A stretch of 31,322 nucleotides of DNA, from assembly GCA_030615855.1 (NCBI GenBank), contig JAUWYL010000015.1, forward strand, positions 1-31,322, read 5' to 3'. The position numbers were made by a program, and so were the translations under genes. This DNA is from a bacterium. Its GTDB lineage: Bacteria; UBP18; UBA7526. Shown one piece after another: positions 6,084-30,832 of the stretch (position 1 is the first letter of the stretch; every line of letters begins with the position of its first letter). The notes under the pieces are model-generated. The model searched no databases. It worked only from the letters and a program-made list of their open reading frames with translations, and had not been told where the DNA came from.

Positions 6084-6204
6084 CTCCTCATTTTACAATG
6101 AACATTGAACATTTCACACTGCTCACTTTCCCACTTTCACACCTGCTCTTCGGCAGTCATTGCTTAATATTTATGCTCTCTCGGATGCCAGCTAAGCGCA
6201 TCCG

Positions 6205-7596
6205 TCATCTACGTCTAAGGTATTTGTTTATTGCCTGGGCGGCCCTCTTTCCATGTCCCATGGCATCGATCACCGTGGGCTCGCCCGGTATTATGTCTCC
6301 CCCCGCGAAGACTCCCGGGATAGAGGTGGCCCCATCCTTATCCACCAAAATATGGCCCTTAGGAGTGGTCTTCAGACTTGGGGTATAAGAAGGTAACAGA
6401 GGATTGGGCCCCTGGCCTATGGCTACCACTACCGTATCTACTTCCATCATAAACTGAGAACCCTCAATGGGTAAAGGCCTTCTCCTCCCACTCTCATCGG
6501 GCTCCCCCAATCTCATTCGGGTACACTCCATCCCTCTGACCCATCCCCTTTCATCTCCCAAGAAACGTATGGGCAAGGTCAGGAGTTTTATTCCTACTCC
6601 CTCTTCCTTAGCATGCTCTATCTCCTCCTGGCGAGCAGGCATCTCTTGTTCACTCCTTCGATAAGTAATGGTTACTTCTTCTGCTTCCAGGCGCTGGGCA
6701 ACCCGGGCAGCATCAAAAGCCACGTTTCCTCCCCCGATCACCGCCATCCTCCTTCCCTTTCTAACTGGGGTGTCGTACTCTGGAAACCTGTGGGCCTTCA
6801 TCAAGTTGACACGGGTCAGGAATTCATTCGCCGAATAGATACCATTCAAATTCTCTCCCGGGATGTTTAGAAAGCGAGGGAGCCCAGCCCCAGTGCCGAT
6901 AAAGACGGCCTTATATCCTTGCTCGAATAAATCCTTAAGAGTAAATACCTTGCCTATGAGCATATTGGTCTGGATCTCTACCCCCAGCCTTTTTATTCCC
7001 TCGATTTCAAAGTCCAGAACTCCTTTGGGCAATCTAAAGCCCGGGATCCCATACCTCAAGACCCCTCCTGGAAAATGCAAAGATTCGAATATGGTTACTC
7101 TATACCCTGATTTGGCCAGGTCGGCTGCTGCGGTCAACCCTGCCGGACCAGAACCCACCACCGCCACTTTTACATTTTTGAGTTTTGAGTTTTGCCCGCC
7201 CCGCTTCGCGGGGCGAGGCCGGGGAGTTTTGAGTTTAATATTCTGTGACTTGCCCCAGTCGGCAACAAACCTCTCCAACTTCCCAATGGCTAAAGGTTCT
7301 CCTTTTTTACCCAGAATACATTGGACCTCGCACTGGGTCTCCTGGGGGCAGACCCGACCGCAGATGGCGGGCAGGTTATTCTTCTCCCACAGGAGATTGA
7401 GGGCAGAATCGAACCTTCCCTCCTTTATATGAAGAGTGAATCCCGGGATGTCTATCCCTACCGGACATCCCTCCTTACAGGGTGCCGGGGAACATATCAG
7501 ACATCTACTGGCCTCTTCCCTTGCCCCTTCTGCGCTATATCCCAGGGCTACCTCTGCGAAGTTCCTAATCCTCTCCTCTGGCCTCTGCCTGGGCAT
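6205..7596 (-). CDS. NADPH-dependent glutamate synthase beta-subunit-like oxidoreductase (NfnB/SudA/GltD family)
   Basis: N-terminal Fe-S Cys cluster (CLICSPAPCKEGCP...CGRVCPQETQCEVQC), FAD/NAD Rossmann 'VAVVGSGPAGL' and 'VIGGGNVAFD'; start taken at internal ATG (7594-7596) giving 'MPRQRPEERIRNFAEV', which matches the SudA/NfnB N-terminus; ORF-track start is 7620; contains in-frame palindromic mini-insertion at ~7177-7238. Confidence 0.8.
   Translation of the reverse strand: MPRQRPEERIRNFAEVALGYSAEGAREEASRCLICSPAPCKEGCPVGIDIPGFTLHIKEGRFDSALNLLWEKNNLPAICGRVCPQETQCEVQCILGKKGEPLAIGKLERFVADWGKSQNIKLKTPRPRPAKRGGQNSKLKNVKVAVVGSGPAGLTAAADLAKSGYRVTIFESLHFPGGVLRYGIPGFRLPKGVLDFEIEGIKRLGVEIQTNMLIGKVFTLKDLFEQGYKAVFIGTGAGLPRFLNIPGENLNGIYSANEFLTRVNLMKAHRFPEYDTPVRKGRRMAVIGGGNVAFDAARVAQRLEAEEVTITYRRSEQEMPARQEEIEHAKEEGVGIKLLTLPIRFLGDERGWVRGMECTRMRLGEPDESGRRRPLPIEGSQFMMEVDTVVVAIGQGPNPLLPSYTPSLKTTPKGHILVDKDGATSIPGVFAGGDIIPGEPTVIDAMGHGKRAAQAINKYLRRR
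7177..7238. repeat. In-CDS mini-insertion: GAGTTTT direct repeats flanking GC-rich hairpin GCCCCGC-TTC-GCGGGGC
   Basis: Read directly; encodes 'KLKTPRPRPAKRGGQNSKLKN' immediately before the 'VAVVGSGPAG' Rossmann motif of the NfnB-like protein. Confidence 0.8.
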
Positions 7597-8431
7597 TCTC
7601 ACCCTTAAGTTCTTCCTCATATCTCTCCAGGGCTATCCTCTCCTCTTTTGTGAACCTTTTCTCCCGGACCAAAAGCTCATCGAAATCCACCAGCTCTCCT
7701 GGAAATTCTGGACCGTGGACGCAGACGAACCTATTCTCTTCTCCTACTCGTACACGACAGCTTCCACACATCCCAGTGCCATCCACCATGATGGTATTGA
7801 GGCTTACCGTAGTGGGAATTTTCTCCTTTTTAGTGATCTCACAGACCTTCTTCATCATGATCAAAGGTCCTATAGCCAGGACCTGATCCATCCTTTTCTT
7901 CTGGGCGATCAATCTCTCCAGGATATCGGTTACCAGGCCCTTCTCTCCATAGGAACCATCGTCAGTAGTGATATAGATCTCCTGGCTTAGATCCTTCATC
8001 TCTTTCTCTAAGATAATGAGCTCCTTAGTCCTAGCTCCCAGGATGGTGGTAATCCTATTCCCGGCCTCTTTTAGCGCTCTTGCAATAGGAACTAAGGGAA
8101 TGATCCCGATGCCCCCTCCAATAGTAAGCACCTCCCCATACTTCTCTATAGAGGTAGGTTTCCCCAAAGGGCCCAAAAGATCCGGGAGGGAATCCCCCAC
8201 CTTCAGGGTAGAGAGCTTCTTGGTAGTCTTTCCCACCTCCTGGAAGATGATGGTTATCCTGTCTTGGGTCCCATCCGCCTCATAGATGGTCAAGGGGATC
8301 CGTTCTCCCTGCTCATCGATTCTCAGGATGACGAATTGACCGGGCAGGGCTTTCTTAGCGATGAGGGGGGCCTCTATTTGGAATAGAGTGATCTCTGGCG
8401 CCACTCTTTTCTTGGCTACTATTTTGTTCAT
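7565..8431 (-). CDS. Ferredoxin-NADP+ reductase subunit alpha-like (NfnA/SudB/PyrK family; FAD + 2Fe-2S)
   Basis: 288 aa; PyrK-like FAD/NAD domain and C-terminal 2Fe-2S Cys motif 'GMCGSCRV...CVHGPEF'; 3' end overlaps start of NfnB-like gene. Confidence 0.8.
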   Translation of the reverse strand: MNKIVAKKRVAPEITLFQIEAPLIAKKALPGQFVILRIDEQGERIPLTIYEADGTQDRITIIFQEVGKTTKKLSTLKVGDSLPDLLGPLGKPTSIEKYGEVLTIGGGIGIIPLVPIARALKEAGNRITTILGARTKELIILEKEMKDLSQEIYITTDDGSYGEKGLVTDILERLIAQKKRMDQVLAIGPLIMMKKVCEITKKEKIPTTVSLNTIMVDGTGMCGSCRVRVGEENRFVCVHGPEFPGELVDFDELLVREKRFTKEERIALERYEEELKGENAQAEARGED

Positions 8432-8477: not shown

Positions 8478-8630
8478 ATGTATCGGAGTATGGGCGTATT
8501 GGGGTATCGGTGTATCGGAGTGTCGGTGTAATGGTGTAAGTGAATATTTTTCTTTTTTACTCCCACACTCCACTACTCCCCTACCCCGTTACTCCCTTAC
8601 CCATCCTCACCCGTCCTTACCCTTCTCCTC
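8478..8630. repeat. Strand-asymmetric intergenic repeat region: G/T-rich (TATCGGAGT/GGTGTAAGTG units), then A/T centre, then C/T-rich (ACTCC/TTACCC units)
   Basis: Between NfnA-like start and aminotransferase stop; the two halves are loosely reverse-complementary. Confidence 0.7.
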
Positions 8631-11044: not shown

Positions 11045-11056
11045 CTAATCTCCCTA

Positions 11057-11122
11057 ACACGGATTAGCACAGATTAGAAAAAACAGATTAGCACAGATTT
11101 AATCCGTGCCTATCCGTGTCTA
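11057..11122. repeat. CACGGAT/ATCCGTG-family inverted tandem array (abuts the DERA stop codon)
   Basis: 'ACACGGATTAGCACAGATTAG...CAGATTAGCACAGATT' then 'AATCCGTGCCTATCCGTGTCTAAT'. Confidence 0.75.
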
Positions 11123-12007
11123 ATAGCCGGCTCCAGCTGGGGTTCCCTTTATGATAGCCACGCTCGCTGAGGCCCCGATCCTGGTGGCTCCGGCCTTGAG
11201 CAAGGCTTGGACATCCTCAAAGGTTCTGACTCCTCCCGAGGCCTTTACCCCCATAATAGGACCAACTATGCGACGCATGAGGGCAACATCGGCTACCGTT
11301 GCCCCCCCTCCACTGAAACCGGTGGATGTTTTAACAAAGTCTGCTCCAGCTTCCTTTGCTATCTGACAGGCCTTAATCTTTTCCTCTTGAGTTAGTAAAG
11401 CAGTCTCCAGAATCACCTTAACAATCCTTCCATTGGCCGCATTGACTACCGCCTGAATATCCTTTTTCACCAGATCGTAATTCTTTGCTTTCAGGGCTCC
11501 GATGTTCATCACCATATCGATCTCATCCGCTCCATTGGCGATGGCATCCCTGGTCTCCATGGCCTTGGCCGTGGAGGTCGTGGCTCCTAAGGGAAAACCG
11601 ATTACCGTAGTGATCTTGACTGGGGTCCCTTTTAGTACCTTTGCTGCTAAGGGGACATAACTGGGATTGATGCAGACAGAGGCAAAGTTATACTTCTTTG
11701 CCTCCTCACATAACTGGGTGATCTTCTCTGGAGAGGCATCGGGCTTTAAATAGGTATGATCAATGGTATGGGCAATCTCTTCTTTTGGCGGCCTTGCTCC
11801 AATGGTAGCCCCTATCCTCTCTGCTCCAGCAGCAACTACTTTCTCCACCTCACTGGGACACTTAACAACGCATAATCCACAGGCAGTACATTCGCTATCC
11901 GTTGCCGGACAGATGGTCACTCCAGGAATAACTCCTGTCTCCTCTTCAGCAAGGCGCCGCATAACATTCCTGGTTATTCTATCTATTAGCTCATCGAACT
12001 CAGCCAT
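11120..12007 (-). CDS. deoC: Deoxyribose-phosphate aldolase (DERA) with ~75 aa N-terminal extension (encapsulation-peptide-like helix + 4Fe-4S-type Cys motif)
   Basis: 295 aa; catalytic-Lys region '[16 protein letters not shown]', DERA core from ~aa 80 ('IDHTYLKP'); N-term '[19 protein letters not shown]' amphipathic helix; '[12 protein letters not shown]' = CxxCxxCxxxCP; SD GGAGGAAG. Confidence 0.85.
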
Positions 12008-12035
12008 TCTTCCTCCACGTGATTTCCAAGCATAT

Positions 12036-12096
12036 CGTTTACCGTTAACCCGCTTCGCTGTTTACCGTTTACCGTAAACCGTTAACCGTAAACCTG
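12036..12096. repeat. ACCGT-family tandem heptamers (TTTACCG/TAAACCG/TTAACCG)
   Basis: 'CGTTTACCGTTAACCCGCTTCGCTGTTTACCGTTTACCGTAAACCGTTAACCGTAAACC' between BMV1 stop and DERA start. Confidence 0.75.
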
Positions 12097-12099
12097 CTT

Positions 12100-12369
12100 T
12101 CATTCCATGTCGATGCGGTCTATTACTCCTGCGATAAAAGTCCTCACGGGAATATCTGGATTGCCGAATGCCTGACGGGCAGAGTTTCCCTCATCGATGA
12201 CCAGGACCGTCTCCCCAAAGCCGGCATAACCCTGATCCACGGCCATCAGGGAATTCCCCTCAGGCTTTAGTTTTTTATTCAGAGGTTGAACAATTAAGAG
12301 CCTATTCCCTTCCAGGTGCTTATTCTTCCTGGTAGCTACCACTACCCCGGTTACTTTAGCTATTAACAT
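12100..12369 (-). CDS. BMC vertex (pentamer) protein, EutN/CcmL/PduN family
   Basis: 89 aa; 'MLIAKVTGVVVATRK...LLIVQP' typical PF03319 N-terminus; SD AAGGGAG. Confidence 0.85.
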   Translation of the reverse strand: MLIAKVTGVVVATRKNKHLEGNRLLIVQPLNKKLKPEGNSLMAVDQGYAGFGETVLVIDEGNSARQAFGNPDIPVRTFIAGVIDRIDME

Positions 12370-12381
12370 TCTTCACTCCCT

Positions 12382-12669
12382 TCATTTAGATCGCGGTTTG
12401 GTTGGAGTAACCAAGGACTTGTGAATCCATCCCTCTCTCTTATCAGGTAGTCTAACCTTATACCAATTCCTGCTTTCCTCTAAGACCTTTAGGCGGTCAC
12501 CCTGTTTAAGAGTAATAACTATCTTACTCTCTATTGTAGCCGCACTTCTTATGTTGGCCTGCCCTACTTTGATCCAGACCTTGGCCGGGATTTTCTTAGT
12601 AGTTACCGCAGCACAGCCAGCCAATAGGATAACAACTACTAAGCCCAGTATTAAAAGTCTCCGTCCCAT
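12382..12669 (-). CDS. Bacterial SH3-domain lipoprotein
   Basis: Start taken at ATG (12667-12669) with SD GGGGGTG; signal peptide + lipobox 'LLAGC'; SH3b-like 'AKVWIKVGQANIRS...GDRLKVLEESRNWYKV'; ORF-track start 12687 is TTG. Confidence 0.55.
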   Translation of the reverse strand: MGRRLLILGLVVVILLAGCAAVTTKKIPAKVWIKVGQANIRSAATIESKIVITLKQGDRLKVLEESRNWYKVRLPDKREGWIHKSLVTPTKPRSK

Positions 12670-12701
12670 TCTATCACCCCCTTTCAATCATTCTTCTAGG
12701 C

Positions 12702-12830
12702 TGTCACGAAACTCGTTCCAGCCTATGATTACACAGATTCTAAAAAGATTACGCAGATTTTACCGACGAGTATTTGATCTGTGTAATCTAAATTTTAATG
12801 GGTGTAATAAAGGACGACACTTTTGTGACG
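12702..12830. repeat. Nested inverted repeats: 12-bp perfect IR GATTACACAGAT(12727-12738)/ATCTGTGTAATC(12777-12788) with third direct copy GATTACGCAGAT; outer imperfect IR TGTCACGAAA/TTTTGTGACG
   Basis: Read directly; lies upstream of the SH3-lipoprotein gene and downstream of BMV2. Confidence 0.75.
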
Positions 12831-12836
12831 CCCTAA

Positions 12837-13115
12837 TCATTCTTCCTCATGGATATCTATGGAGTCCACGATGCCCACGATACCTGCATCAACCGGAGCA
12901 ACCTCAGGTAATAGAGGTAAGGAAGCTTCCCGGGCCTCAACGTAGAAGACATAGTCCCCGATCCCCGCCTGAACAGTATCTACAGCCACCTGGGGCTTGT
13001 CTATGGGCTTTTTATCCTCCCAAGTTAAGGGCTGAATGATTAAAAGTTTTGCCCCTTCCAATGTCTCATACTTCTGAGAGGCAACTACTGTTCCAATGAC
13101 TTTAGCAAGCTTCAT
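12837..13115 (-). CDS. BMC vertex (pentamer) protein, EutN/CcmL family (paralog 2)
   Basis: Start taken at internal ATG (13113-13115) preceded by SD GGAAGGAG, giving 'MKLAKVIGTVVASQK...'; the ORF-track N-terminal extension begins on GTG. Confidence 0.8.
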   Translation of the reverse strand: MKLAKVIGTVVASQKYETLEGAKLLIIQPLTWEDKKPIDKPQVAVDTVQAGIGDYVFYVEAREASLPLLPEVAPVDAGIVGIVDSIDIHEEE

Positions 13116-13164
13116 AGGCTCCTTCCAGTCGCGCTTCAAGCCATACACTTAGGAAGCGGTGAAT

Positions 13165-13235
13165 CGGAGATCCTCTTTCTCCGCATCCTTATATCCCTCT
13201 ATTACCGTTTCTCCCTTTCTCCGTCTCTCCGTTTC
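13165..13235. repeat. Hairpin CGGAGA-tcctctt-TCTCCG plus tandem CCGT(T/C)TCTC units
   Basis: Read directly, between RpiB stop and BMV2 start. Confidence 0.6.
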
Positions 13236-13255
13236 AACATTCCTACAGCCTGTGG

Positions 13256-13789
13256 CTATTTCAAGTATTTTTTTTCTATTCCCATTATCTTATCTACTCT
13301 TCGGGCATGACGACCACCAGCGAACTTAGTCTCCAGCCATACCTTAACCATCTCCTTTGCTAAAGCAACTCCAATGGTCTGGCCCCCGAGACATAGAATA
13401 TTGGCATCATCATGCTCACTGGCCATCTTTGCAGTAAAGGTGTCATAGGCCAAAGCCGCCCTTATTCCGGGAACCTTATTACAGGCGATGCAGGAACCCA
13501 TTCCCGCACCATCGATCATTATTCCTTTAGAACATTCTCCCTTTACAACCTCTGAAGCAACGAGATGGGCATAGTCCGGATAGTCGCAGGACTCCGGGCT
13601 ATAGGGACCACAGTCCTTCACCTTATATCCCAATTCATTGAGATATTTTCTCAGTTCCTCCTTTAAGGGGAACCCTCCGTGATCGCTCCCCATGGCAATT
13701 TTCTTCTCATCCTTAGGAGGAGCTTCAGAGGATTTTAACTGAGCAGCAACTTCTTTTACGATCTTCTTTATGATATCCTCAGAAACCAT
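13256..13789 (-). CDS. rpiB: Ribose-5-phosphate isomerase B (RpiB/LacAB family) with N-terminal encapsulation-peptide-like extension
   Basis: 177 aa; 'IAMGSDHGGFPLKEEL', 'GMGSCIACNKVPGIRAA'; ~30 aa N-terminal extension 'MVSEDIIKKIVKEVAAQL' (amphipathic). Confidence 0.85.
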   Translation of the reverse strand: MVSEDIIKKIVKEVAAQLKSSEAPPKDEKKIAMGSDHGGFPLKEELRKYLNELGYKVKDCGPYSPESCDYPDYAHLVASEVVKGECSKGIMIDGAGMGSCIACNKVPGIRAALAYDTFTAKMASEHDDANILCLGGQTIGVALAKEMVKVWLETKFAGGRHARRVDKIMGIEKKYLK

Positions 13790-13794
13790 TCTTC

Positions 13795-14028
13795 TTACTC
13801 TTTTATAATTTTGATTCTGAATTCCAGGGCCCTATCCCGGGCAAAAGGGGTGATGATGGCATCCCTGGGAACCCTTAATTCCTTGCATCCCTGCTTTGCC
13901 GCCTTAAGCATCACCTCTTCATTAACGAGCATCCTCTTCGTCCCACGGGGAGAAGTTACCTTCCCCTTTCCAGCCAACTCCTTCTGGACCTCTTCAGTAA
14001 CGATTTGAATCAACTTCTCTTTATCCAT
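13795..14028 (-). CDS. Small hypothetical protein with N-terminal encapsulation-peptide-like helix (BMC-associated, no recognisable catalytic domain)
   Basis: ~77 aa from ATG 14026-14028 (SD GGAG 8 nt upstream; ORF-track GTG start at 14037); 'MDKEKLIQIVTEEVQKEL' amphipathic helix then Gly/Lys linker and ~45 aa C-terminal module '...KELRVPRDAIITPFARDRALEFRIKII'. Confidence 0.5.
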   Translation of the reverse strand: MDKEKLIQIVTEEVQKELAGKGKVTSPRGTKRMLVNEEVMLKAAKQGCKELRVPRDAIITPFARDRALEFRIKIIKE

Positions 14029-14050
14029 TTCGCTCACTCCGTTCGCTCAA

Positions 14051-14151
14051 TACGCTGATTACCGCTGATATACTGCACTGATTGCCGCTGATTATCTGCG
14101 GTCATCTGCGTCTTTTTTCCATATCTCTCCTCGCCATCTGCGTCTATCTGC
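14051..14151. repeat. Tandem GCTGAT(T/A) x4 followed by ATCTGCG x4 around a T-rich centre
   Basis: Read directly, between PduT stop and the small EP-protein start. Confidence 0.7.
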
Positions 14152-14153
14152 GT

Positions 14154-14705
14154 TTATAAGAGGGCTTTACGTAGTGCCTCATGGGGCTTGGGGATGACGG
14201 TTCGATTGACTAATAGTCCTTCCTCTTCTATCTCTCTGCAACCAGCATCTATGGCAGCCTTGACCGCATCTACTTCTCCTGTCAAGGTAACGAAGCCCTT
14301 TCCGGCCAATCCCTTTGCTAAACGAATTTCGATGAGTTCTATCTTGGCCGCCTTTACTGCGGCATCTGCAGCCAGGATAATGGCTGATACAGAGAAGGTC
14401 TCTATTACACCAATTGCTTTTAGCTCCTTAATAACGCTCGTTCCCATTATGGCCGGAAAGACATCGGAGTGGACATTGGGAATGACGAAGCTATCCATCA
14501 CTGTTTCTTTACCCACTTCCTTTCCTTTATCGATTGAGGACCGGACACTGGCCACATCTCCCATTACCAAGACGATATATTTACCGGGGCAGATGGAGAA
14601 GGATTCGATGAGGTCCACTGCCGCTACCTTCATCATGGCATCACAGACCTCAAACCCCCGGGCAACACTATTCAATTCCACCATACCGATGGCATTTTTA
14701 ACCAT
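14154..14705 (-). CDS. pduT: PduT-like tandem-domain BMC shell protein (BMC-T, putative Fe-S pore)
   Basis: 183 aa; two PF00936 domains; strong resemblance to PduT as I recall it ('AIGMVELNSVARG...DAMMK', 'SICPGKY', 'AIGVIETFSVSA...AADAAVKAA', 'GLLVNRTVIPKPHEAL'); conserved pore Cys in 'CPGK'. Confidence 0.85.
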   Translation of the reverse strand: MVKNAIGMVELNSVARGFEVCDAMMKVAAVDLIESFSICPGKYIVLVMGDVASVRSSIDKGKEVGKETVMDSFVIPNVHSDVFPAIMGTSVIKELKAIGVIETFSVSAIILAADAAVKAAKIELIEIRLAKGLAGKGFVTLTGEVDAVKAAIDAGCREIEEEGLLVNRTVIPKPHEALRKALL

Positions 14706-14728
14706 TTCATCCTCGTTTCACTCGGATA

Positions 14729-14816
14729 GTTTACAGTTTATCCGCTCGGCCTTTGGCCTCGCTGTTTACTGTTAACCGTCTTTTACCGTAAACCGTACAC
14801 CGTTAACCGTAAACCC
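14729..14816. repeat. ACCGT-family array containing dispersed block TTTACCGTAAACCGTACACCGTTAACCGTAAACC
   Basis: Upstream of PduT start; 23-27 nt identical to copies at ~25787-25815 and ~26901-26925. Confidence 0.8.
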
Positions 14817-14840
14817 TATCTTGCTGGTTACTGCTCACTG

Positions 14841-16163
14841 TTATGCTTCGATAGTAATAGAGTCTCCGATATCGGTTATCTTTCCCTCTATTGAGGCATG
14901 AATCCTTGCTCCTAAGGCTCCTCTGGGAATATCGGCAATCAAATCTCCCACTTTTACTTTCTCATTCAACTTTACGGTCGGGATCGATTTTGCTCCCACA
15001 TGCTGAGAGAGAGAAATCCTGACAAGGTTCGTCCGATATTCTCTCTTCTCCAGAGGAGCATCAAGATTATATTCCTCTATTCCGATCCTTGAGATGATCC
15101 TCTCTGTAGGAACTTTGCGATACTCTATCATGGAATGGGCTTCCTCCGGAGCCTCCTTATGGGGATTCTTAACCTTGGCCTCTGTCAGTTCCTTTTTAAT
15201 CTCCTGATTCACCCTGAGTGGTGATAGTCCAAAAGGACAAGCATATAGATTACATAAACCGCATTCTGAACAGAGGAAAGCAGCGGTGATGTCATTCAAT
15301 TCCTTTCTCATTTCATACCCCACATGCCTCATTATCTTATGGGGTTTTAAGGAATGGCCGATTAAGTACCGGGGACAGAGTTCAGTGCAGTCGGTGCACT
15401 GCATACAGAGCATGGTCTTCCTGAGGATTTTTCTCATCTCCAGGGTCTTGTTCATAATGACCTGATGGTCTTTGGGCAGGACAATCAATCCCGTGGTGGT
15501 CTTCATTACTGGGGAATCCAAATCTTCAATCAGTTTCCCCATCATAGGTCCGCCATCCAAGACAGAAAAATCATTTATCTTTGGTTCAGCTAATCTTATT
15601 ACCTCTCCCACACTCATCCCCACGGGAACCTTCACTGACTTCGGTCCCTTCACCGCCCCGGATATTGTGAGATAGCGATGGGTGACCGGCCTTCTTTCTA
15701 TAGTATCTGCAACATTGATGAGGGTTCCCACATTATCCACCACCACTCCCACTTGTAGGGGAATTCCTCCCTCAGGGACGATCCTCTTCAATACCTCATA
15801 GACCAGTATCTGCTCATCACCCGCAGGATAGAAGTCACCAAGGATAAATAGTTCGATGTGGGATGGAGGATGTGGGATGTGGGATGTTAAAGCAGCGATG
15901 GCCTCTTTATATTTTTCTTTTAAAGCAATAAATCCCTTCTTGGCTCCCGTGGCCTCCATTACTAGCTTTAAACCCTTGATCACTTTGTTCGCTTGGGTAG
16001 CCATTAATTGCTGATCGATGCGCAAGAGAGGCTCACACTCCGCACCATTGGCGATGACATACTCTACCTTGGTCTCTAACTTCACATGGGTGGGGAAGCC
16101 CGCTCCCCCTGCTCCCACCACCCCAGCATCCCTTACTTTCTCAATAATCTCTTTCTTATTCAT
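14841..16163 (-). CDS. pduS: PduS/RnfC-like Fe-S flavoprotein (BMC-associated oxidoreductase)
   Basis: 440 aa; N-terminus 'VRDAGVVGAGGAGFPTHVKLE' as in PduS/RnfC; two ferredoxin motifs 'CMQCTDCTELCP' and 'CSECGLCNLYACP'; in-frame heptamer repeat (~15855-15886) encoding 'HIPHPPSHI'; my manual base count and the ORF track disagree by 1 nt at this start codon. Confidence 0.8.
   Translation of the reverse strand: MNKKEIIEKVRDAGVVGAGGAGFPTHVKLETKVEYVIANGAECEPLLRIDQQLMATQANKVIKGLKLVMEATGAKKGFIALKEKYKEAIAALTSHIPHPPSHIELFILGDFYPAGDEQILVYEVLKRIVPEGGIPLQVGVVVDNVGTLINVADTIERRPVTHRYLTISGAVKGPKSVKVPVGMSVGEVIRLAEPKINDFSVLDGGPMMGKLIEDLDSPVMKTTTGLIVLPKDHQVIMNKTLEMRKILRKTMLCMQCTDCTELCPRYLIGHSLKPHKIMRHVGYEMRKELNDITAAFLCSECGLCNLYACPFGLSPLRVNQEIKKELTEAKVKNPHKEAPEEAHSMIEYRKVPTERIISRIGIEEYNLDAPLEKREYRTNLVRISLSQHVGAKSIPTVKLNEKVKVGDLIADIPRGALGARIHASIEGKITDIGDSITIEA
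15855..15886. repeat. In-CDS tandem heptamer (GATGTGG)x4.5
   Basis: Encodes 'HIPHPPSHI' inside the PduS-like protein, in frame. Confidence 0.8.
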
Positions 16164-16224
16164 TCCGTCATTCCGTCATTCCGTCATTCCGTCAGTAAGT
16201 TAGACGGATAGACGGATTAGACGT
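16162..16224. repeat. (CATTCCGT)x4 tandem octamer followed by (GACGGATA)x2.5 near-reverse-complement units; includes the PduS start codon
   Basis: Read directly; on the mRNA strand gives ACGGAATG x4 immediately 5' of and including the ATG. Confidence 0.8.
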
Positions 16225-16249
16225 TTCCTTCAAAACTTAAAGTTTTTTA

Positions 16250-17680
16250 TTAGGCAATTCTAAAGTAATCCACCAATACGCATCTTAAGGGTCTAGTGAA
16301 GGTGCTGGCTTTGGTCAATCCTTCTCCAGTGGGGGTGGCGATGCTCATGGTGGCATATCCCTCTCCCTCGTACCCCAACCCGGCATAGGAAGGGGCATTC
16401 TTAACGAAGATGGAAACTTGAGCGGTCTTGGCCATCTTGGTCAGATTGGCAACATTTAAGGAATGCATGATGGCGGTATGCTTATTGGCCTGTTCAACTT
16501 CTACAGCAAAATTAATTGCCTCATCAACATCTTTTACCCTGACAAAAGGGATGACCGGCATGAGCTGCTCTGTCCAGACGAAAGCGTGGTTTCGGTCCAC
16601 TTCACAGAATAAGAGTCTGGTACTCTCTGGTACTTTTACTCCAATCTTGGAAGCGATTAAAGTGGCATCCCTACCAATATACTCCCTACTCACTTTGGGC
16701 TCTTTCCCTGGACCACCTGGTTCCAGTATGGCGGCCTTGGTTAACTTTTCAAACTCATCCTTCTTTAACTCATAGGTCCGGGGATCCTTGCGCAATAGTT
16801 CCAATAATCTATCAGCAATAGCTTCCACGGCGATGATCTCCTTCTCTGCGGTACACAAGACGCCATTGTCAAAACTGGCTCCCTTTATGATGGAGTCAGA
16901 GGCATGCTCTAAGTCTAAAGTCTCATCTATTACTACTGGAGGATTCCCTGGACCAGCAGCAATCACCTTCTTTCCGCAGGCCATGGCGGCTCTCACCACC
17001 CCTGGCCCACCAGTGACTAGGATGAGCTTTATCTTGGGATGCTTGAATAGTGTCTGGGCCTCTTCAATGGAGGGCTTGGCAGCAGTGGTCATCAGATTTG
17101 CTGGCCCACCTGCTTTTATAATCGCTTCATTAAGAATCTGAATGGATTTCAGGGATACCTTCTTGGCTGCCGGATGGGGGGCGAAGACCACACTATTCCC
17201 GGCAGCGATGATGGAGATGGCATTATTTATTATGGTAGAGGAAGGATTGGTAGAGGGAGTCACAGCACCTATTACTCCAAAGGGAGCCATCTCCACTAAG
17301 GTTAAACCATGGTCCCCAGTATAGGCTATGGGGTGTAGATCCTCTACTCCAGGGGTCTTCTGGGCAGATAATAAGTTCTTCTGGACCTTATCCTCCCACC
17401 TTCCCATCTTGGTCTCTTCCCAGGCCAATTTTGCTAAACTCTCTGCCTCCCGGATTGAGGCCTCCCTCATAGCCTCGATATATTTGCTCCTCTTCTCCAG
17501 ACTCTCGCGAAAGAGCTCCCTTTGGGCAATCCGTGCCGCCTCAATGGCTTCCTCCACATTAGGAAAGACCCCCAGGTCCCCAGCACCTGCCTTTACTTCA
17601 GGAGGTCTGGCCTCTTCTTTGGTCATCCTCTCTACTATTTCCTTAACAACTTCTCTTATCTTCTCTGGACTGATCTCCAT
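16250..17680 (-). CDS. CoA-acylating aldehyde dehydrogenase (EutE/PduP family) with N-terminal encapsulation peptide
   Basis: Catalytic Cys box 'FDNGVLCTAEKEII'; start taken at ATG (17678-17680; SD GAGG 6 nt upstream) giving 'MEISPEKIREVVKEIVERM'; ORF-track start 17707 is GTG inside the upstream repeat array. Confidence 0.85.
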   Translation of the reverse strand: MEISPEKIREVVKEIVERMTKEEARPPEVKAGAGDLGVFPNVEEAIEAARIAQRELFRESLEKRSKYIEAMREASIREAESLAKLAWEETKMGRWEDKVQKNLLSAQKTPGVEDLHPIAYTGDHGLTLVEMAPFGVIGAVTPSTNPSSTIINNAISIIAAGNSVVFAPHPAAKKVSLKSIQILNEAIIKAGGPANLMTTAAKPSIEEAQTLFKHPKIKLILVTGGPGVVRAAMACGKKVIAAGPGNPPVVIDETLDLEHASDSIIKGASFDNGVLCTAEKEIIAVEAIADRLLELLRKDPRTYELKKDEFEKLTKAAILEPGGPGKEPKVSREYIGRDATLIASKIGVKVPESTRLLFCEVDRNHAFVWTEQLMPVIPFVRVKDVDEAINFAVEVEQANKHTAIMHSLNVANLTKMAKTAQVSIFVKNAPSYAGLGYEGEGYATMSIATPTGEGLTKASTFTRPLRCVLVDYFRIA

Positions 17681-17703
17681 CTTCATCCTCACTTCGCTCC
17701 GGT

Positions 17704-17789
17704 GCACGGATAATCACGGATTTCATACGGATGAGCACAGATTAAATCCGTGCTAATCTGTATTATTATCAGTGCTAATCCGTGTCTAA
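17704..17789. repeat. Phased CAC(G/A)GAT x4 then ATC(C/T)GTG x4 array (same family as 21443-21523)
   Basis: Unit starts approximately 17704/17714/17725/17735 and 17747/17757/17770/17780 (~10 bp phasing); spans BMV3 stop to AldDH start. Confidence 0.8.
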
Positions 17790-18076: not shown

Positions 18077-18100
18077 CTGTCTCCTCCTTATAGATTAGAA

Positions 18101-18166
18101 GTTTACAGTAGCCAGTTAACAGTAACCAGTCTTCTACTGTAAACTGTTCGCTGGTTACTGGTTACT
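18101..18166. repeat. GGTTACTG-family element: GTTTACAGT...CAGTAACCAG then ACTGTAAAC...CTGGTTACTG (unit / reverse-complement unit, order preserved)
   Basis: Exact 9- and 10-nt reverse-complement pairs at ~30 nt offset; between AckA stop and BMV3 start. Confidence 0.75.
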
Positions 18167-19370: not shown

Positions 19371-19403
19371 TTTTACCCCCTTTAAGGTTGGTATTAGTTA
19401 GCA

Positions 19404-19465
19404 GTGTACAGTTTACAGCAAAAAACTGGTTACTGTTCGCTGGTTACTGATTACTCTTTATCTTA
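19404..19465. repeat. GGTTACTG-family element (shares CTGTTCGCTGGTTACTG(G/A)TTAC with 18136-18166)
   Basis: Between PduL stop and AckA start. Confidence 0.75.
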
Positions 19466-20136: not shown

Positions 20137-20153
20137 TAAAATACAGTATAATA

Positions 20154-20213
20154 GGTGGATTGGTTGGATTAGTTGGATTTAAAATCCACCTAATTTCCTA
20201 ATCCAACTAATTT
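20154..20213. repeat. GGATTAGTTGG-family element: GGTGGAT...AGTTGGATT then ATCCACC...AATCCAACT (order-preserved reverse-complement pairs)
   Basis: Between TPI stop and PduL start; related copy at ~30706-30740. Confidence 0.75.
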
Positions 20214-20978: not shown

Positions 20979-20994
20979 AAACTCCTCCTCTAAA

Positions 20995-21131
20995 CACAGA
21001 TTCACACAGATAAGAGACAGATTCACACAGATCACAGATATTTAATAGCATCCGAATTCCAAAAAATTCTAATATCGAATTTTATAATCTGTGATCTGTG
21101 GCCATCTGTAAACAATCTGTGATGATCTGTG
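20995..21131. repeat. Large symmetric array: CACAGAT x5 (~10 bp phased), then 46-bp A/T-rich centre with GAATT repeats, then ATCTGTG x5
   Basis: rc(CACAGAT)=ATCTGTG exactly; spacer lengths are nearly mirrored (3,4,3,0 vs 0,3,4,2); between BMC-H stop and TPI start. Confidence 0.85.
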
Positions 21132-21442: not shown

Positions 21443-21523
21443 CACGGATAATCACAGATTCTTTACGGATGGTCACGGATCAAATCCGTGCTAATCCGTG
21501 TTGTTATCCGTGCTAATCCGTGT
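21443..21523. repeat. Phased (C/T)AC(G/A)GAT x4 then ATCCGTG x4 array upstream of the BMC-H gene
   Basis: Unit starts approximately 21443/21453/21463/21473 and 21484/21494/21506/21516; between DGC stop and BMC-H start. Confidence 0.85.
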
Positions 21524-23317
21524 CTATTTACTTTTAAAGAGGCAGACCTTATTTCTTCCTTCTCTTTTAGCGCGATATAAAGATTGGTCTGCCTGGCCGA
21601 TTAGTACCTCCTTACGCATACCCTTCTTATAACCGGCCACCCCAATACTCATCGTAATCTTGACTCTCTTCTTCTTTCCTTTTAGAAAATCAAAGCCCTG
21701 GACCTTCTTCCGCAGGCGTTCTGCCAAGAGACAGGCTCCCTTAGCATCCGTCTCGGGTAGGATAAGGGCGAATTCCTCTCCTCCGTAGCGGGCAGCGATA
21801 TCCGCTCCCCTTATAGCTTGCTTTAAGAGACGGGCGATATTCACTAAAACCGTATCCCCCGCTGGATGGCCATAGGTATCGTTAAATCTTTTGAAGTGAT
21901 CAATATCTAACATAAGCAAGGATAATGGAGTCTCATAACGTTTGGCCTTCCCCATCTCCTGCTCCAGGTAATTCTGAAAGAAGGTATGGGCATAGAGACC
22001 GGTCAATCCATCGTGAATCGCCTGCTCATATAGCATAGCATTCTGGATGGCTATCGCAGCATGGCTTGCCAGGGTAGATAGGAGCTCCTCGTCCCGGCGA
22101 ATGAACGGCTGGCGGGAGACCTTATTGGAGAGGGTAATCACTCCCACCCCCTCTCCCTTAGCCACCAGGGGAAGAGCGAGTAAAGTCTCTGTCCTATGTA
22201 ATTTCTTCTCTGTCTTTAGAGTCTTATAGCGTCGATCCCTTAAGGTATCATTGATTACCATGAGTTTCTTCTTCTCAAAGACGCTACCGGCAATCCCTTC
22301 CCCTATCTTTAGCCTCAGGTGTTTCCTGGCCTCCTCACTTATCCCTGTACCATAAGCGATATAGAGCCTCTTTTTCTTCTCGTGCCAGAGCATGAGGGAT
22401 CCCTTCTCCACCTGAGCCACCTCCATGAATAATCCTACGATGAGCCTCAAAAGTTCTTCCCTCTCCAGGTTGGAACTTATCTTTGTCGAGAGTCTTTGAA
22501 GCATCTGAAGATCCAGGACCCTCTGGTCAAGCTCCTCCTTTGCTCTGGCTAAGAGAGTGCTCTTCTCCTCAAGCGATCTCCAGCTCTGAGAGAGCCTCTT
22601 CCCCATCTGGTTAAATACCTCTCCCAATTCCCCCACCTCATCTCGAGAGGTGATCCTCACCCTGGCTCCCAGATCTCCCTTACCAATTTTCTTGGCAGCT
22701 TGAACTAACCTCTTTATCGGTCGGGTAATGCTGGCTGCCAGGAATAAGGAGATGACGATCCCTAGGATGAGCAGGCCAATGGTCAGAAGAAAGATGCGAT
22801 CTCGAATCTCAGCGATCCTTGCTTTTAAGAGGAGAGAGGAGAATCCCACCCTTACCAGGCCGATCCTTCTTTTTCCAAGAAGAATAGGAACTGCGACATC
22901 GTATACTCCCTCTTCTGTAATCTGTGAGAGGGTGGTCCTTGCTCCCTGGGCCTTGAGGCTCAAGTCATCACTCAAGGTCTTGCCCACCAGGCTCTTATTC
23001 GTGTGGGCCATGACCTCTCCAATATCATTCAAAATGATGACATAATCGATATCCTCACCCTTCTTGCCTATTCCCTCCACTATCTGGGCCAAGGTGATGT
23101 AATCATTGGATAGGATGGCCGTGGTGGAGGTGGTGGCCAGAGCATTGGTAATGTCCTTGGCCCTCTTGATCATCTGGTCAGTGGCCGTTCCCTCCTCCCT
23201 TTTGAGAGTGATACCAGCCACTAAGGACATGATGATCACGATGATCATAATCACAAATCCAGCAATCTTTCCTGCTAAACTAACTTTCATCTGTTTAGAA
23301 GTATCCCGGGCTGACAA
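21524..23317 (-). CDS. Membrane sensor diguanylate cyclase (TM - extracytoplasmic sensor - TM - HAMP - GAF - GGDEF)
   Basis: 597 aa; two hydrophobic segments flanking a ~150 aa sensor region, HAMP-like region, GAF-like region, GGDEF with 'RYGGEEFALIL'; TTG start with SD GGGAGG (alternative ATG at 23288-23290). Confidence 0.8.
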   Translation of the reverse strand: MSARDTSKQMKVSLAGKIAGFVIMIIVIIMSLVAGITLKREEGTATDQMIKRAKDITNALATTSTTAILSNDYITLAQIVEGIGKKGEDIDYVIILNDIGEVMAHTNKSLVGKTLSDDLSLKAQGARTTLSQITEEGVYDVAVPILLGKRRIGLVRVGFSSLLLKARIAEIRDRIFLLTIGLLILGIVISLFLAASITRPIKRLVQAAKKIGKGDLGARVRITSRDEVGELGEVFNQMGKRLSQSWRSLEEKSTLLARAKEELDQRVLDLQMLQRLSTKISSNLEREELLRLIVGLFMEVAQVEKGSLMLWHEKKKRLYIAYGTGISEEARKHLRLKIGEGIAGSVFEKKKLMVINDTLRDRRYKTLKTEKKLHRTETLLALPLVAKGEGVGVITLSNKVSRQPFIRRDEELLSTLASHAAIAIQNAMLYEQAIHDGLTGLYAHTFFQNYLEQEMGKAKRYETPLSLLMLDIDHFKRFNDTYGHPAGDTVLVNIARLLKQAIRGADIAARYGGEEFALILPETDAKGACLLAERLRKKVQGFDFLKGKKKRVKITMSIGVAGYKKGMRKEVLIGQADQSLYRAKREGRNKVCLFKSK

Positions 23318-25778: not shown

Positions 25779-25815
25779 GGGTCGCTGTTTACCGTAAACC
25801 GTACACCGTTAACCT
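25779..25815. repeat. Dispersed ACCGT-family block GTTTACCGTAAACCGTACACCGTTAACC preceded by hairpin CCCCGA-ttta-TCGGGG
   Basis: 27-nt identity with ~14783-14809. Confidence 0.8.
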
Positions 25816-26799: not shown

Positions 26800-26818
26800 T
26801 TTTCTCACTCCGTTCGAG

Positions 26819-26925
26819 GGTTTACTGTTGACCGTTTACGGTAAAAAAAACCGCCTCTCGTTTTCACTCGAGACTGGGCGATCCTGAATGAAATGAAGGA
26901 CCGTACACCGTTAACCGTAAACCTT
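26819..26925. repeat. ACCGT-family element: GTTTACTGTTGACCGTTTACGGT...(A)8...GACCGTACACCGTTAACCGTAAACC
   Basis: 23-nt identity with ~14794-14816; upstream of the TIM-barrel gene. Confidence 0.75.
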
Positions 26926-27788
26926 TATTTCTTCAAATATTTTCCAATAAGAAGTTCTAGTTCCTTCTTCCTCTTCTCTGGTATGGCCTCTTTCTGAGTA
27001 ATAACGGCAGTGGCTAAGGCAGTGGCACAGGAACATTCCCTCTTATCTGGTATCCTGGGAATGATCGCTCTAACAAGTTCCTTTGCTTTTAAGGCATTTG
27101 CCTCTAAGTTTTTTATCACGGTCGCAACGCTCACTTCTTCTGTCACATGCCACACATCATAATCCGTAACCAGAGCCACTGTGGCATAGCAGATCTCTGC
27201 CTCTCGGGCAAGCTTCACCTCCGGAAGGTTGGTCATCCCAATGACCTCCACCCCCCAACTGCGATATATTCTGGACTCTGCTCGGGTAGAGAAGGCTGGC
27301 CCTTCGATGCAGAGATAGGTTCCGCCCTTATGTATCCGGTATCCCAAATCCTTGCCCGTTTCATATAGTATCTTGCTCAAGATTGGGCAGTAGGGGTCAG
27401 CGAAGGAGATATGAGCCACTATCCCATCCCCAAAGAAGGTAGGGACCCTAATCTTCGTCCTATCGAATAACTGATCGGGGATGAAGAAGTCCTGGGGCCT
27501 GATCTCTTCCTTCATGCTTCCCACAGCAGAAAAGGCAATGATCCACTCCACCCCCAGAGATTTCAGGGCATAGATATTGGCCTTATTGGGGAGTTCTGTG
27601 GGCATAATCCTATGACCCCGGGCATGACGAGGTAGAAAGGCCACCCTCTTCCCTTCCAAAGTACCAGTGATTATGCTATCTGAGGGCTCCCCGAAGGGAG
27701 TAGAGGGCTTCACCTCCTTCATATCCTCTAAGCCCTTGATATCATATAATCCCGTTCCCCCAATCACCCCGATCTTAATCTTCTCCAT
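26925..27788 (-). CDS. mtnP: S-methyl-5'-thioadenosine phosphorylase (PNP/MTAP family)
   Basis: 287 aa; 'IGVIGGTGLYD', 'FGEPSD', 'GMTNLPEVKLAREAEICYATVALVTDYD'. Confidence 0.8.
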   Translation of the reverse strand: MEKIKIGVIGGTGLYDIKGLEDMKEVKPSTPFGEPSDSIITGTLEGKRVAFLPRHARGHRIMPTELPNKANIYALKSLGVEWIIAFSAVGSMKEEIRPQDFFIPDQLFDRTKIRVPTFFGDGIVAHISFADPYCPILSKILYETGKDLGYRIHKGGTYLCIEGPAFSTRAESRIYRSWGVEVIGMTNLPEVKLAREAEICYATVALVTDYDVWHVTEEVSVATVIKNLEANALKAKELVRAIIPRIPDKRECSCATALATAVITQKEAIPEKRKKELELLIGKYLKK

Positions 27789-30705: not shown

Positions 30706-30832
30706 AGGAAATTAGTTGGATTGGGTGGATTAGTTCAACCTTGCCCACCTACGAGGTGGGACAGGTTATACGTATTCTCATATTTTTTTGTCAACTTGTA
30801 TCCTTGTCAACTTCTGGTTACTGGTTACTGTT
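30706..30832. repeat. Intergenic region with GGATTAGTTGG-family copy (30706-30740), perfect hairpin CCCACCT-acg-AGGTGGG (30744-30760), TTGTCAAC direct repeat and a CTGGTTACTGGTTACTGTTC copy (30813-30832)
   Basis: Read directly; matches the families at 20154-20213 and 18136-18166. Confidence 0.7.
30765..30810 (-). promoter_or_regulatory. Candidate sigma70-like promoter for the DHH phosphoesterase gene (two TTGACA boxes on the minus strand, TATAAC -10)
   Basis: Minus strand reads AAGTTGACAAGGATACAAGTTGACA-(A)7TATGAGAATACG-TATAAC; spacer ~18-19 nt, so weak. Confidence 0.25.

Follow-up and report, generated by a model that had tools for sequence, protein, structure and literature searches.

Results

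A GC-rich hairpin in an NfnB-like gene

The stretch of DNA analysed here, hereafter the window, comprises the 31,322 nt of contig JAUWYL010000015.1 (assembly GCA_030615855.1; GTDB lineage Bacteria; UBP18; UBA7526). On its minus strand it carries a gene for an NfnB-like protein, the large subunit of NADH-dependent ferredoxin:NADP oxidoreductase, and within this gene a GC-rich hairpin lies between short direct repeats (Table 1). The best solved relatives of the encoded protein are T. maritima NfnB (4ylf_B, E 2e-174) and P. furiosus NfnI (5jca_L, E 3e-164), both of which align over the full length. This similarity to solved NfnB, together with the adjoining NfnA-like partner gene, assigns the host gene at the sequence level as a predicted NfnB, and the NfnA-like/NfnB gene pair is common to all related loci. 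With its first ATG taken as the start, NfnB shares 56 nt (7565-7620) with the end of the NfnA-like gene; several NfnB orthologues are annotated from an internal methionine at MPRQRPEE (residue 9), and the true start of the window gene may lie 24 nt downstream of the first ATG.

On the plus strand the 13-nt sequence GAGTTTTGAGTTT is found in two exact copies, at 7180-7192 and 7224-7236 (start-to-start distance 44), and has no further occurrence in the window; the copies represent two tandem GAGTTTT units on each side of the hairpin. The core of the hairpin is a perfect 8-bp stem (CGCCCCGC/GCGGGGCG, 7197-7204/7208-7215) with a 3-nt loop, which is GAA on the sense strand (TTC on the plus strand) in the context GCGAAGC, a notably stable mini-hairpin motif. 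Folding gave -23.7 kcal/mol as RNA (z -3.7) and -14.6 kcal/mol as DNA (z -4.5); 0 of 200 shuffles folded as well, and none of 100 shuffled versions of the window contained the 19-nt hairpin core. The sense strand reads ...CAG AAT ATT AAA CTC AAA ACT CCC CGG CCT CGC CCC GCG AAG..., and then CGG GGC GGG CAA AAC TCA AAA CTC AAA AAT GTA AAA GTG GCG..., and the linker region translates to SQNIKLKTPRPRPAKRGGQNSKLKNVKVAVVG. The feature is in frame within the 471-aa open reading frame (ORF), and its peptide (...SQNIKLKTPRPRPAKRGGQNSKLKNVKVAVVGSGPAG...) directly precedes the Rossmann motif. An original prediction, made from the sequence alone, had described a GC hairpin flanked by GAGTTTT repeats in an NfnB-like coding sequence, in frame and immediately before the motif that binds flavin adenine dinucleotide (FAD) or nicotinamide adenine dinucleotide; exact coordinates and fold statistics bear out the first point and the ORF translation the second.

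A terminator scan of both strands at the hairpin called no intrinsic (Rho-independent) terminator; on the plus strand 6 nt separate the end of the extended stem (7219) from the first TTTT, and on the minus strand the stem leads into an A-run. Covariance models from Rfam, including those for clustered regularly interspaced short palindromic repeats, gave nothing better than E = 1.9 within 7000-7400 and no match at gathering score anywhere in the window.

The linker is encoded by a heptanucleotide microsatellite

The hairpin falls in the linker that joins the Fe-S domain helix (...ERFVADWG) to the FAD Rossmann strand (KVAVVGSGPAG). In the alignments to both structures, 4ylf_B and 5jca_L, the sole sizeable gap, of 7-8 residues, is this ERFVADW-to-KVAVVGSGPAG linker. 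An AlphaFold model of the window NfnB places residues 126-143 in coil and gives residues 133-145 a predicted local distance difference test score (pLDDT) below 50; the model is only moderate (mean pLDDT 66), and its use is limited to the statement that the linker is a coil of low confidence.

A protein search returned eleven close homologues, at 80-86% identity, and many others at 61-66%. Linkers were read codon by codon in the DNA of the window gene, of eight close orthologues and of two distant orthologues with 62-64% identity. The linker is the sole hypervariable segment of the NfnB protein alignment, in which several homologues show 7-residue repeats of their own. At the DNA level a 7-nt tandem array encodes the linker in 11 of 11 NfnB genes (62-100% identical, window included), with a unit that varies by lineage (Table 1) and with 4-7 units in the orthologues. 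The ten homologue linkers show a lag-7 self-identity of 0.54-0.74, as against 0.27 in the remainder of the window gene; for the window linker the value is 0.49 with the insert and 0.70 without the 30 GC-rich bases. Tandem Repeats Finder reports period 7 at 7176-7194 (2.7 copies, 100% match). The window array is a coding heptanucleotide simple-sequence repeat, of the type termed long simple sequence repeat (LSSR) or variable number of tandem repeats, in which three units make one 7-aa repeat. Compared between species only, linker lengths are 21, 22, 28, 29 and 31 aa. The two distant loci, L135 and L136, come from differently labelled uncultivated bacteria, and in them 7-nt NfnB linker arrays reach beyond the close clade.

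At the matching site, and with the same 5′ flank, the related locus L002 has ATT(AAACTCA)x3(AAATGCA)x4, in which the AAACTCA array is uninterrupted; the repeat is therefore older than the insertion. Since 7-nt arrays are present in all linkers read, the GAGTTTT flanks of the hairpin are the halves of a microsatellite (sense AAACTCA/AAAACTC), and this linker microsatellite is, as judged from the sequences compared, ancestral to the clade.

The insertion is 30 nt long and lineage-specific

What interrupts the microsatellite is a GC-rich insertion of 30 nt confined to the window lineage. The window linker reads ATT AAACTCA AAACTC[CCCGGCCTCGCCCCGCGAAGCGGGGCGGGC]A AAACTCA AAACTCA AAAATG, and the aligned stretch of L002 reads ATT AAACTCA AAACTCA AAACTCA AAATGCA...; the insert is 90% G+C within a window of 42-51% G+C. 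Its excision in silico yields (AAACTCA)x4, keeps the frame and leaves a linker of 21 residues, the median of the family: linkers in 107 homologues have a median length of 21 aa and none is shorter than 20, the close short-linker relatives P0002, P0006, P0011 and P0012 have 21 aa, and the 31 aa of the window equal 21 + 10. Removing the hairpin together with one 7-nt unit (37 nt), or with the 13/14-nt repeat (43-44 nt), breaks the frame, and removing 30 + 21 = 51 nt leaves a 14-aa linker, below the family minimum. Both flanks of the insert are collinear with the orthologues, and the insert itself is free of stop codons.

None of the 11 close homologues, nor any other homologue examined, has the GC palindrome; with no similar sequence in any homologue, the insertion is therefore placed on the terminal branch leading to the window lineage. 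Orthologue alignment accordingly upholds the idea that the insertion is lineage-specific (palindrome in none, linker of 31 against a median of 21 aa), and unrelated orthologues with an equally long linker of similar sequence did not emerge, there being no similar sequence in any. Two further elements of the original prediction are revised by the same comparison. The net addition is 10 residues (30 nt, 7194-7223) and not about 20, as KLK...KLK is encoded by the pre-existing repeat. The GAGTTTT flanks, which had been taken for a target-site duplication, are no such thing: orthologue comparison and frame arithmetic together rule it out, as L002 has the unit uninterrupted and a duplication of 7 or 13-14 nt is excluded by the frame.

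Searches for further copies of the palindrome

In the searches for further copies of the GC palindrome, the source genome was represented by the 31-kb contig. Allowing up to 3 mismatches, the only insert-like sequence in the window is the insert itself. The window and the related loci L001-L010 (about 72 kb) contain no other strong GC hairpin and no such insert in any ORF, so that the insert is unique among them; a blastn-short comparison of the insert with the same sequences returned only chance 7-10-mers and nothing akin to this genome's intergenic repeat families. The exact 44-mer had 0 matches in the genome collection (one genome per GTDB species) and the exact 26-mer hairpin 0 matches in the metagenome collection. 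Matches to the 19-nt core were found in 5 viral contigs and at least 119 genome contigs, as single copies scattered over mostly high-GC taxa; none has the flanks of the insert, the best among the matches listed agreeing at 7 of 11 flank bases. On this distribution the core reads as a generic stable GC hairpin and not as a family. A degenerate flank pattern for a same-species allele, with or without the insert, gave 0 matches in the metagenome collection. The multi-copy element of miniature inverted-repeat transposable element (MITE) or repetitive extragenic palindromic (REP) type that had been proposed thus finds no second copy in the window, in the approximately 72 kb of relatives' loci or in the genome and metagenome collections. 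The CGAACCC-type units of L001 and L007, the closest relatives, were also considered as a source of the insert; the similarity is too weak to support such a derivation.

Repeats elsewhere in the window

The window contains 31 short tandem arrays as compared with 6.2 in dinucleotide shuffles (maximum 12), and 12 arrays of period 7, 14 or 21 as compared with 0.7. Short tandem arrays with a period of 7, 8 or 10 nt make up nearly all intergenic spacers of the operon, and L004, L005 and L135, among the related loci, are array-rich in the same way. The operon encodes bacterial microcompartment (BMC), DeoC, PduS-like, aldehyde dehydrogenase, serine hydroxymethyltransferase, aminotransferase and NfnAB proteins; its microcompartment locus (11120-17707), with BMC shell, DeoC-type aldolase, PduS/RnfC-like and aldehyde dehydrogenase genes, lies beside those for the hydroxymethyltransferase, the aminotransferase and NfnAB. 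This BMC-DeoC-PduS-PduP context resembles loci of Atribacteria (PMC6776118), a likeness that may hint at the taxon and is not a classification.

Two other genes of the window contain coding arrays, one of them encoding a TrpE-like (anthranilate synthase component I-like) protein. In the PduS/RnfC-like gene, the orthologues in L003 and L004 have an array of a different unit at the same site and a protein of the same length as in the window, a sign that the unit turns over while the site stays fixed. Since this array (same site, different unit) behaves as the NfnB linker array does, it supports reading the latter in terms of unit turnover.

Dispersed repeat families occupy the intergenic spacers. 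The sense strand of family 1 consists of (CACGGATNA)n followed by the inverse (TAATCYGTG)n; its two 84-nt copies are 86% identical and fold into a long hairpin (-34.1 kcal/mol, z -5.6), and the family is conserved upstream of genes in a relative. Family 2, built of GGTTTACGGT/TAACGGT units (sense), includes an element of ~110 nt that is nearly identical in the window, where it lies in the BMC shell/PduS-like spacer, and in L005, where it lies in the NfnB/glutamate dehydrogenase spacer; standing between different genes, it therefore occupies different loci in different genomes. None of the dispersed intergenic families, family 1 included, matches Rfam.

Table 1. Genes, repeats and insertion in the window, with corresponding arrays of related loci (window positions unless a locus is named)
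Feature	Position	Strand	Description
NfnB-like gene	6205..7620	minus	NADH-dependent ferredoxin:NADP oxidoreductase large subunit / GltD-like; ORF, 471 aa; carries the hairpin
NfnA-like partner gene	7565..8431	minus	288 aa; Pfam DHODB_Fe-S_bind and NAD_binding_1; precedes NfnB and overlaps its start
Insertion	7194..7223	minus	30 nt, 90% G+C; sense CCCGGCCTCGCCCCGCGAAGCGGGGCGGGC, encoding PRPRPAKRGG; boundaries from codon comparison with 8 close orthologues
Stem-loop inside insertion	7194..7219	not assigned	11 bp with one bulged base; perfect 8-bp core 7197-7215
Upstream half of microsatellite (gene sense)	7224..7236	minus	AAACTCA AAACTC, encoding KLKT; collinear with (AAACTCA)x3 of L002
Downstream half of microsatellite	7173..7193	minus	AAAACTC AAAACTC and degenerate AAAAATG, encoding (Q)NSKLKN
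Linker array, L001			CGAACCC-type units
Linker array, L002			(AAACTCA)x3 (AAATGCA)x4
Linker array, L003			CAAAAAT-type units
Linker array, L005			(TCGCAGG)x4.7, then (CGATnnn)x4
Linker array, L007			(GAACTCC)x3 GAACCCC
Linker array, L008			(TCACATC)x4
Linker array, L009			(CAAAAGT)x3
Linker array, L010			GCTGCAA-type and CGATAAG-type units
Linker array, L135	L135 8377-8426		(ATAGACC)x7, 7.1 copies
Linker array, L136	L136 gene 2327-3730		TTCAAAG/TCGAAAG units
Coding array, PduS/RnfC-like gene (14841-16163, minus)	15855-15887		(CCACATC)x4.7, encoding SHIPHPPSHI
Orthologous array, L003 and L004	L004 2415-2446		(CCAGGAT)x4.6, encoding ARIQDPGSRIQ
Coding array, TrpE-like gene (44-1519, minus)	881-912	plus (unit as given)	(CGGTGAA)x4.6, 100% match, encoding ...YRSPFTVHRSP...
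Intergenic arrays (examples)	6112-6142, 8480-8622, 11058-11122, 12064-12094, 13205-13235, 14053-14157, 14785-14815, 16160-16223, 18100-18166, 19425-19455, 20152-20179, 20994-21036, 21483-21522, 25791-25814, 26900-26927, 30788-30830		
Dispersed family 1	17705-17788, 21443-21526; partial 11056-11123, 20993-21037; L005 1310-1420, 2655-2812, 7845-8005		Intergenic
Dispersed family 2	14700-14845, 12047-12094, 25781-25814, 26814-26847, 26890-26937; L005 6410-6590		Intergenic
(AGTAACC)n family	18113-18166, 19402-19455, 30814-30830		Related to family 2

Discussion

Origin of the insertion

We think it probable that the hairpin in the window NfnB gene represents a one-off, lineage-specific and tolerated in-frame insertion of 30 nt at a slippage-prone repeat, with no demonstrated mobile element involved. 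The linker array, in which three 7-nt units (21 nt) specify seven residues, is proposed to evolve by slippage and unit turnover, only in-frame length changes surviving. A single palindrome of 30 nt and 90% G+C would then have entered between units 2 and 3 of (AAACTCA)x4, adding PRPRPAKRGG to what appears to be a disordered, length-tolerant surface linker. The event may have taken place at a repeat prone to replication or repair errors, through captured filler DNA or template switching, an unseen repeat family being another candidate source. The insert would owe its retention to the reading frame, which it keeps, and to its place in a disordered linker that tolerates length changes, where it may be selectively near-neutral; by splitting the 4-unit array into 2 + 2 it may also, as a side effect, reduce slippage and so stabilise the array.

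Several considerations weigh against this account. The neutrality of the insert and the stabilisation of the array are both properties that we infer. No donor of the 30 nt was found by blastn-short in the window and the relatives' loci, and a perfect GC-rich palindrome is unlike the random sequence of which filler DNA usually consists. The insert sequence comes from a single assembly, the window protein is a database singleton, and further copies of the palindrome in the source genome are conceivable.

The last point leads to an explanation that we regard as unlikely, although it survives better than the others: the palindrome may be a copy of a very small repetitive or mobile element, REP-like, MITE-like or similar to the GC clusters of yeast mitochondria, which has other copies outside the window and landed in the microsatellite, where, as within any gene, only an in-frame copy would persist. 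A near-perfect GC-rich palindrome with sharp boundaries in an AT-rich repeat is what such an element would leave, the dispersed palindromic intergenic families of this lineage suggest that mechanisms for spreading repeats are present, and the source genome beyond the 31-kb contig lay outside the copy searches. Yet the searches that were made found no second copy in the window, in ~72 kb of related loci, or in the genome (44-mer) or metagenome (26-mer) collections, and the 19-nt core is matched only by single copies, spread across taxa and set in unrelated flanks. The insert is also unlike the intergenic repeat families of its own genome, its flanking repeat is not a target-site duplication, and its stem has beside it no GTAG/CTAC head of the kind found in REPs associated with REP-associated tyrosine transposases (RAYTs). 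Its 30 nt fall short of the sizes known for MITEs and for Rickettsia palindromic elements (RPEs) (PMC10969869). A bolder form of the same idea, in which an ultra-small palindromic mobile element of this repeat-rich, uncultivated lineage is here seen in its first copy, a bacterial counterpart of the mitochondrial GC clusters that prefers heptanucleotide microsatellites and survives within genes only when in frame, strikes us as distinctly improbable.

There is an equally slim chance that the hairpin is kept for a function, such as slowing the ribosome between two domains, blocking antisense transcription, or interrupting the microsatellite against frameshifting slippage. It is very stable (-23.7 kcal/mol), sits exactly at the domain boundary and divides the 4-unit array into 2 + 2; interruptions stabilise tandem repeats. 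Against this, four units are already short for frequent slippage, the relatives all function without the insert, and the hairpin is not terminator-like on either strand and belongs to no Rfam family. It is also known from one occurrence in one lineage.

We give somewhat less credence to an artefact, in which the 30 nt were introduced while a low-complexity repeat was being assembled in a metagenome-assembled contig. Repeats are trouble spots for assembly, the sequence is known from a single contig whose protein forms a singleton cluster and has no record elsewhere, and the metagenome collection yielded no allele from the same species. Mis-joins at repeats, however, normally lead into sequence from elsewhere in the genome or duplicate what lies nearby, and do not normally create a novel palindrome of 90% G+C that has no other source in the contig. 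The insert also measures exactly 30 nt and is stop-free, keeping the frame between flanks that are both collinear with orthologues. Translational bypassing, modelled on phage T4 gene 60 and the mitochondrial 'byp' elements, would have ribosomes hop from CUC AAA ACU to matching codons 51 nt downstream, in frame, and so skip a stable GC hairpin set between identical codon strings (KLK...KLK) 17 codons apart, and we consider it very improbable, as ordinary translation of a stop-free, in-frame insert is enough, no stop follows the take-off codon, the matching flanks are fully accounted for by the microsatellite and the instance is a single one.

Taken as a one-off event at a slippage-prone repeat, the insert is in itself a small in-frame insertion and probably neutral. 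It serves as a cautionary case, in that a hairpin with direct repeats mimics the footprint of a transposon, and here the footprint is a microsatellite older than the insertion. More intriguing than the insert is the repeat-rich genome around it: a core electron-bifurcating enzyme has its inter-domain linker in a 7-nt repeat whose site is kept down to 62% identity while the unit is fully replaced, and tandem and palindromic repeat families abound in the operon around it. Slippage in these coding arrays, should it occur, would serve to switch or tune the central redox enzymes of an uncultivated lineage.

Comparison with known systems

The closest parallel to the linker array is offered by NeuO of the E. 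coli K1 prophage CUS-3, in which the coding repeat (AAGACTC)n of the poly-psi domain encodes RLKTQDS heptads and is in frame only if n is a multiple of 3 (PMC3046976). In both cases a 7-nt unit lies in a coding sequence and three units make a heptad, the AAAACTC of the window giving KLKTQNS; neither encoded segment is ordered, fixed in length or needed for the fold, and a slip of one unit would throw the gene out of frame. The two units differ by one base, a near-identity that is probably a coincidence. The NeuO array differs in being N-terminal, in having 2-93 units and in being a demonstrated phase-variation switch, whereas that of NfnB is short (4-7 units), lies inside a core redox enzyme as the linker between two domains and keeps its position from lineage to lineage while its unit differs; phase variation is shown for NeuO only.

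Among prokaryotic LSSRs with units of 5-11 nt, heptanucleotides are reported as the most frequent class, and intergenic TAACTGA heptamers have been described in Beggiatoaceae and Cyanobacteria (reviewed in PMC4679880). The window is likewise rich in heptanucleotide arrays. Its units are different (AAACTCA, TAACCAG, TTACGGT, CACGGAT and others), as is its taxon, which is uncultivated, and several of its intergenic arrays run into their own inverse and fold into long hairpins.

As for the insert, RPEs provide a precedent for a palindrome that lies in frame in a metabolic gene and is tolerated as an extra peptide (PMC10969869), and the window insert, too, is an in-frame palindrome in a metabolic gene. 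RPEs are ~150 bp long and form multi-copy families with a conserved peptide, whereas the insert is 30 nt long, with no second copy detected and no target-site duplication; an RPE-like element would belong to a repeated family lying in frame in several unrelated genes, and within the ORFs of the window and relatives the insert was seen in one. Prokaryotic MITEs measure ~100-250 bp or more (PMC10969869). A MITE was rejected for want of a target-site duplication, and the whole insert is a single 30-nt hairpin and not an element of ~50-800 bp bounded by terminal inverted repeats. RAYT-associated REPs are extragenic, highly repeated imperfect palindromes with a conserved 5′ GTAG head; the insert was rejected as a REP, being intragenic and single-copy in all sequence searched, with no GTAG/CTAC beside its stem. 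The GC clusters and 'byp' elements of yeast mitochondria are GC-rich palindromes of ~30-50 nt in AT-rich DNA, sometimes within coding sequence; they belong to an organelle, occur in multiple copies and have characteristic flanking motifs, and byps are skipped by ribosomes. The insert shares with them the character of a short GC-rich palindrome in AT-rich DNA within a coding region. The feature in the window NfnB gene is a coding heptanucleotide repeat that carries an interrupting indel, and is filed as such and not as a MITE, RPE or REP.

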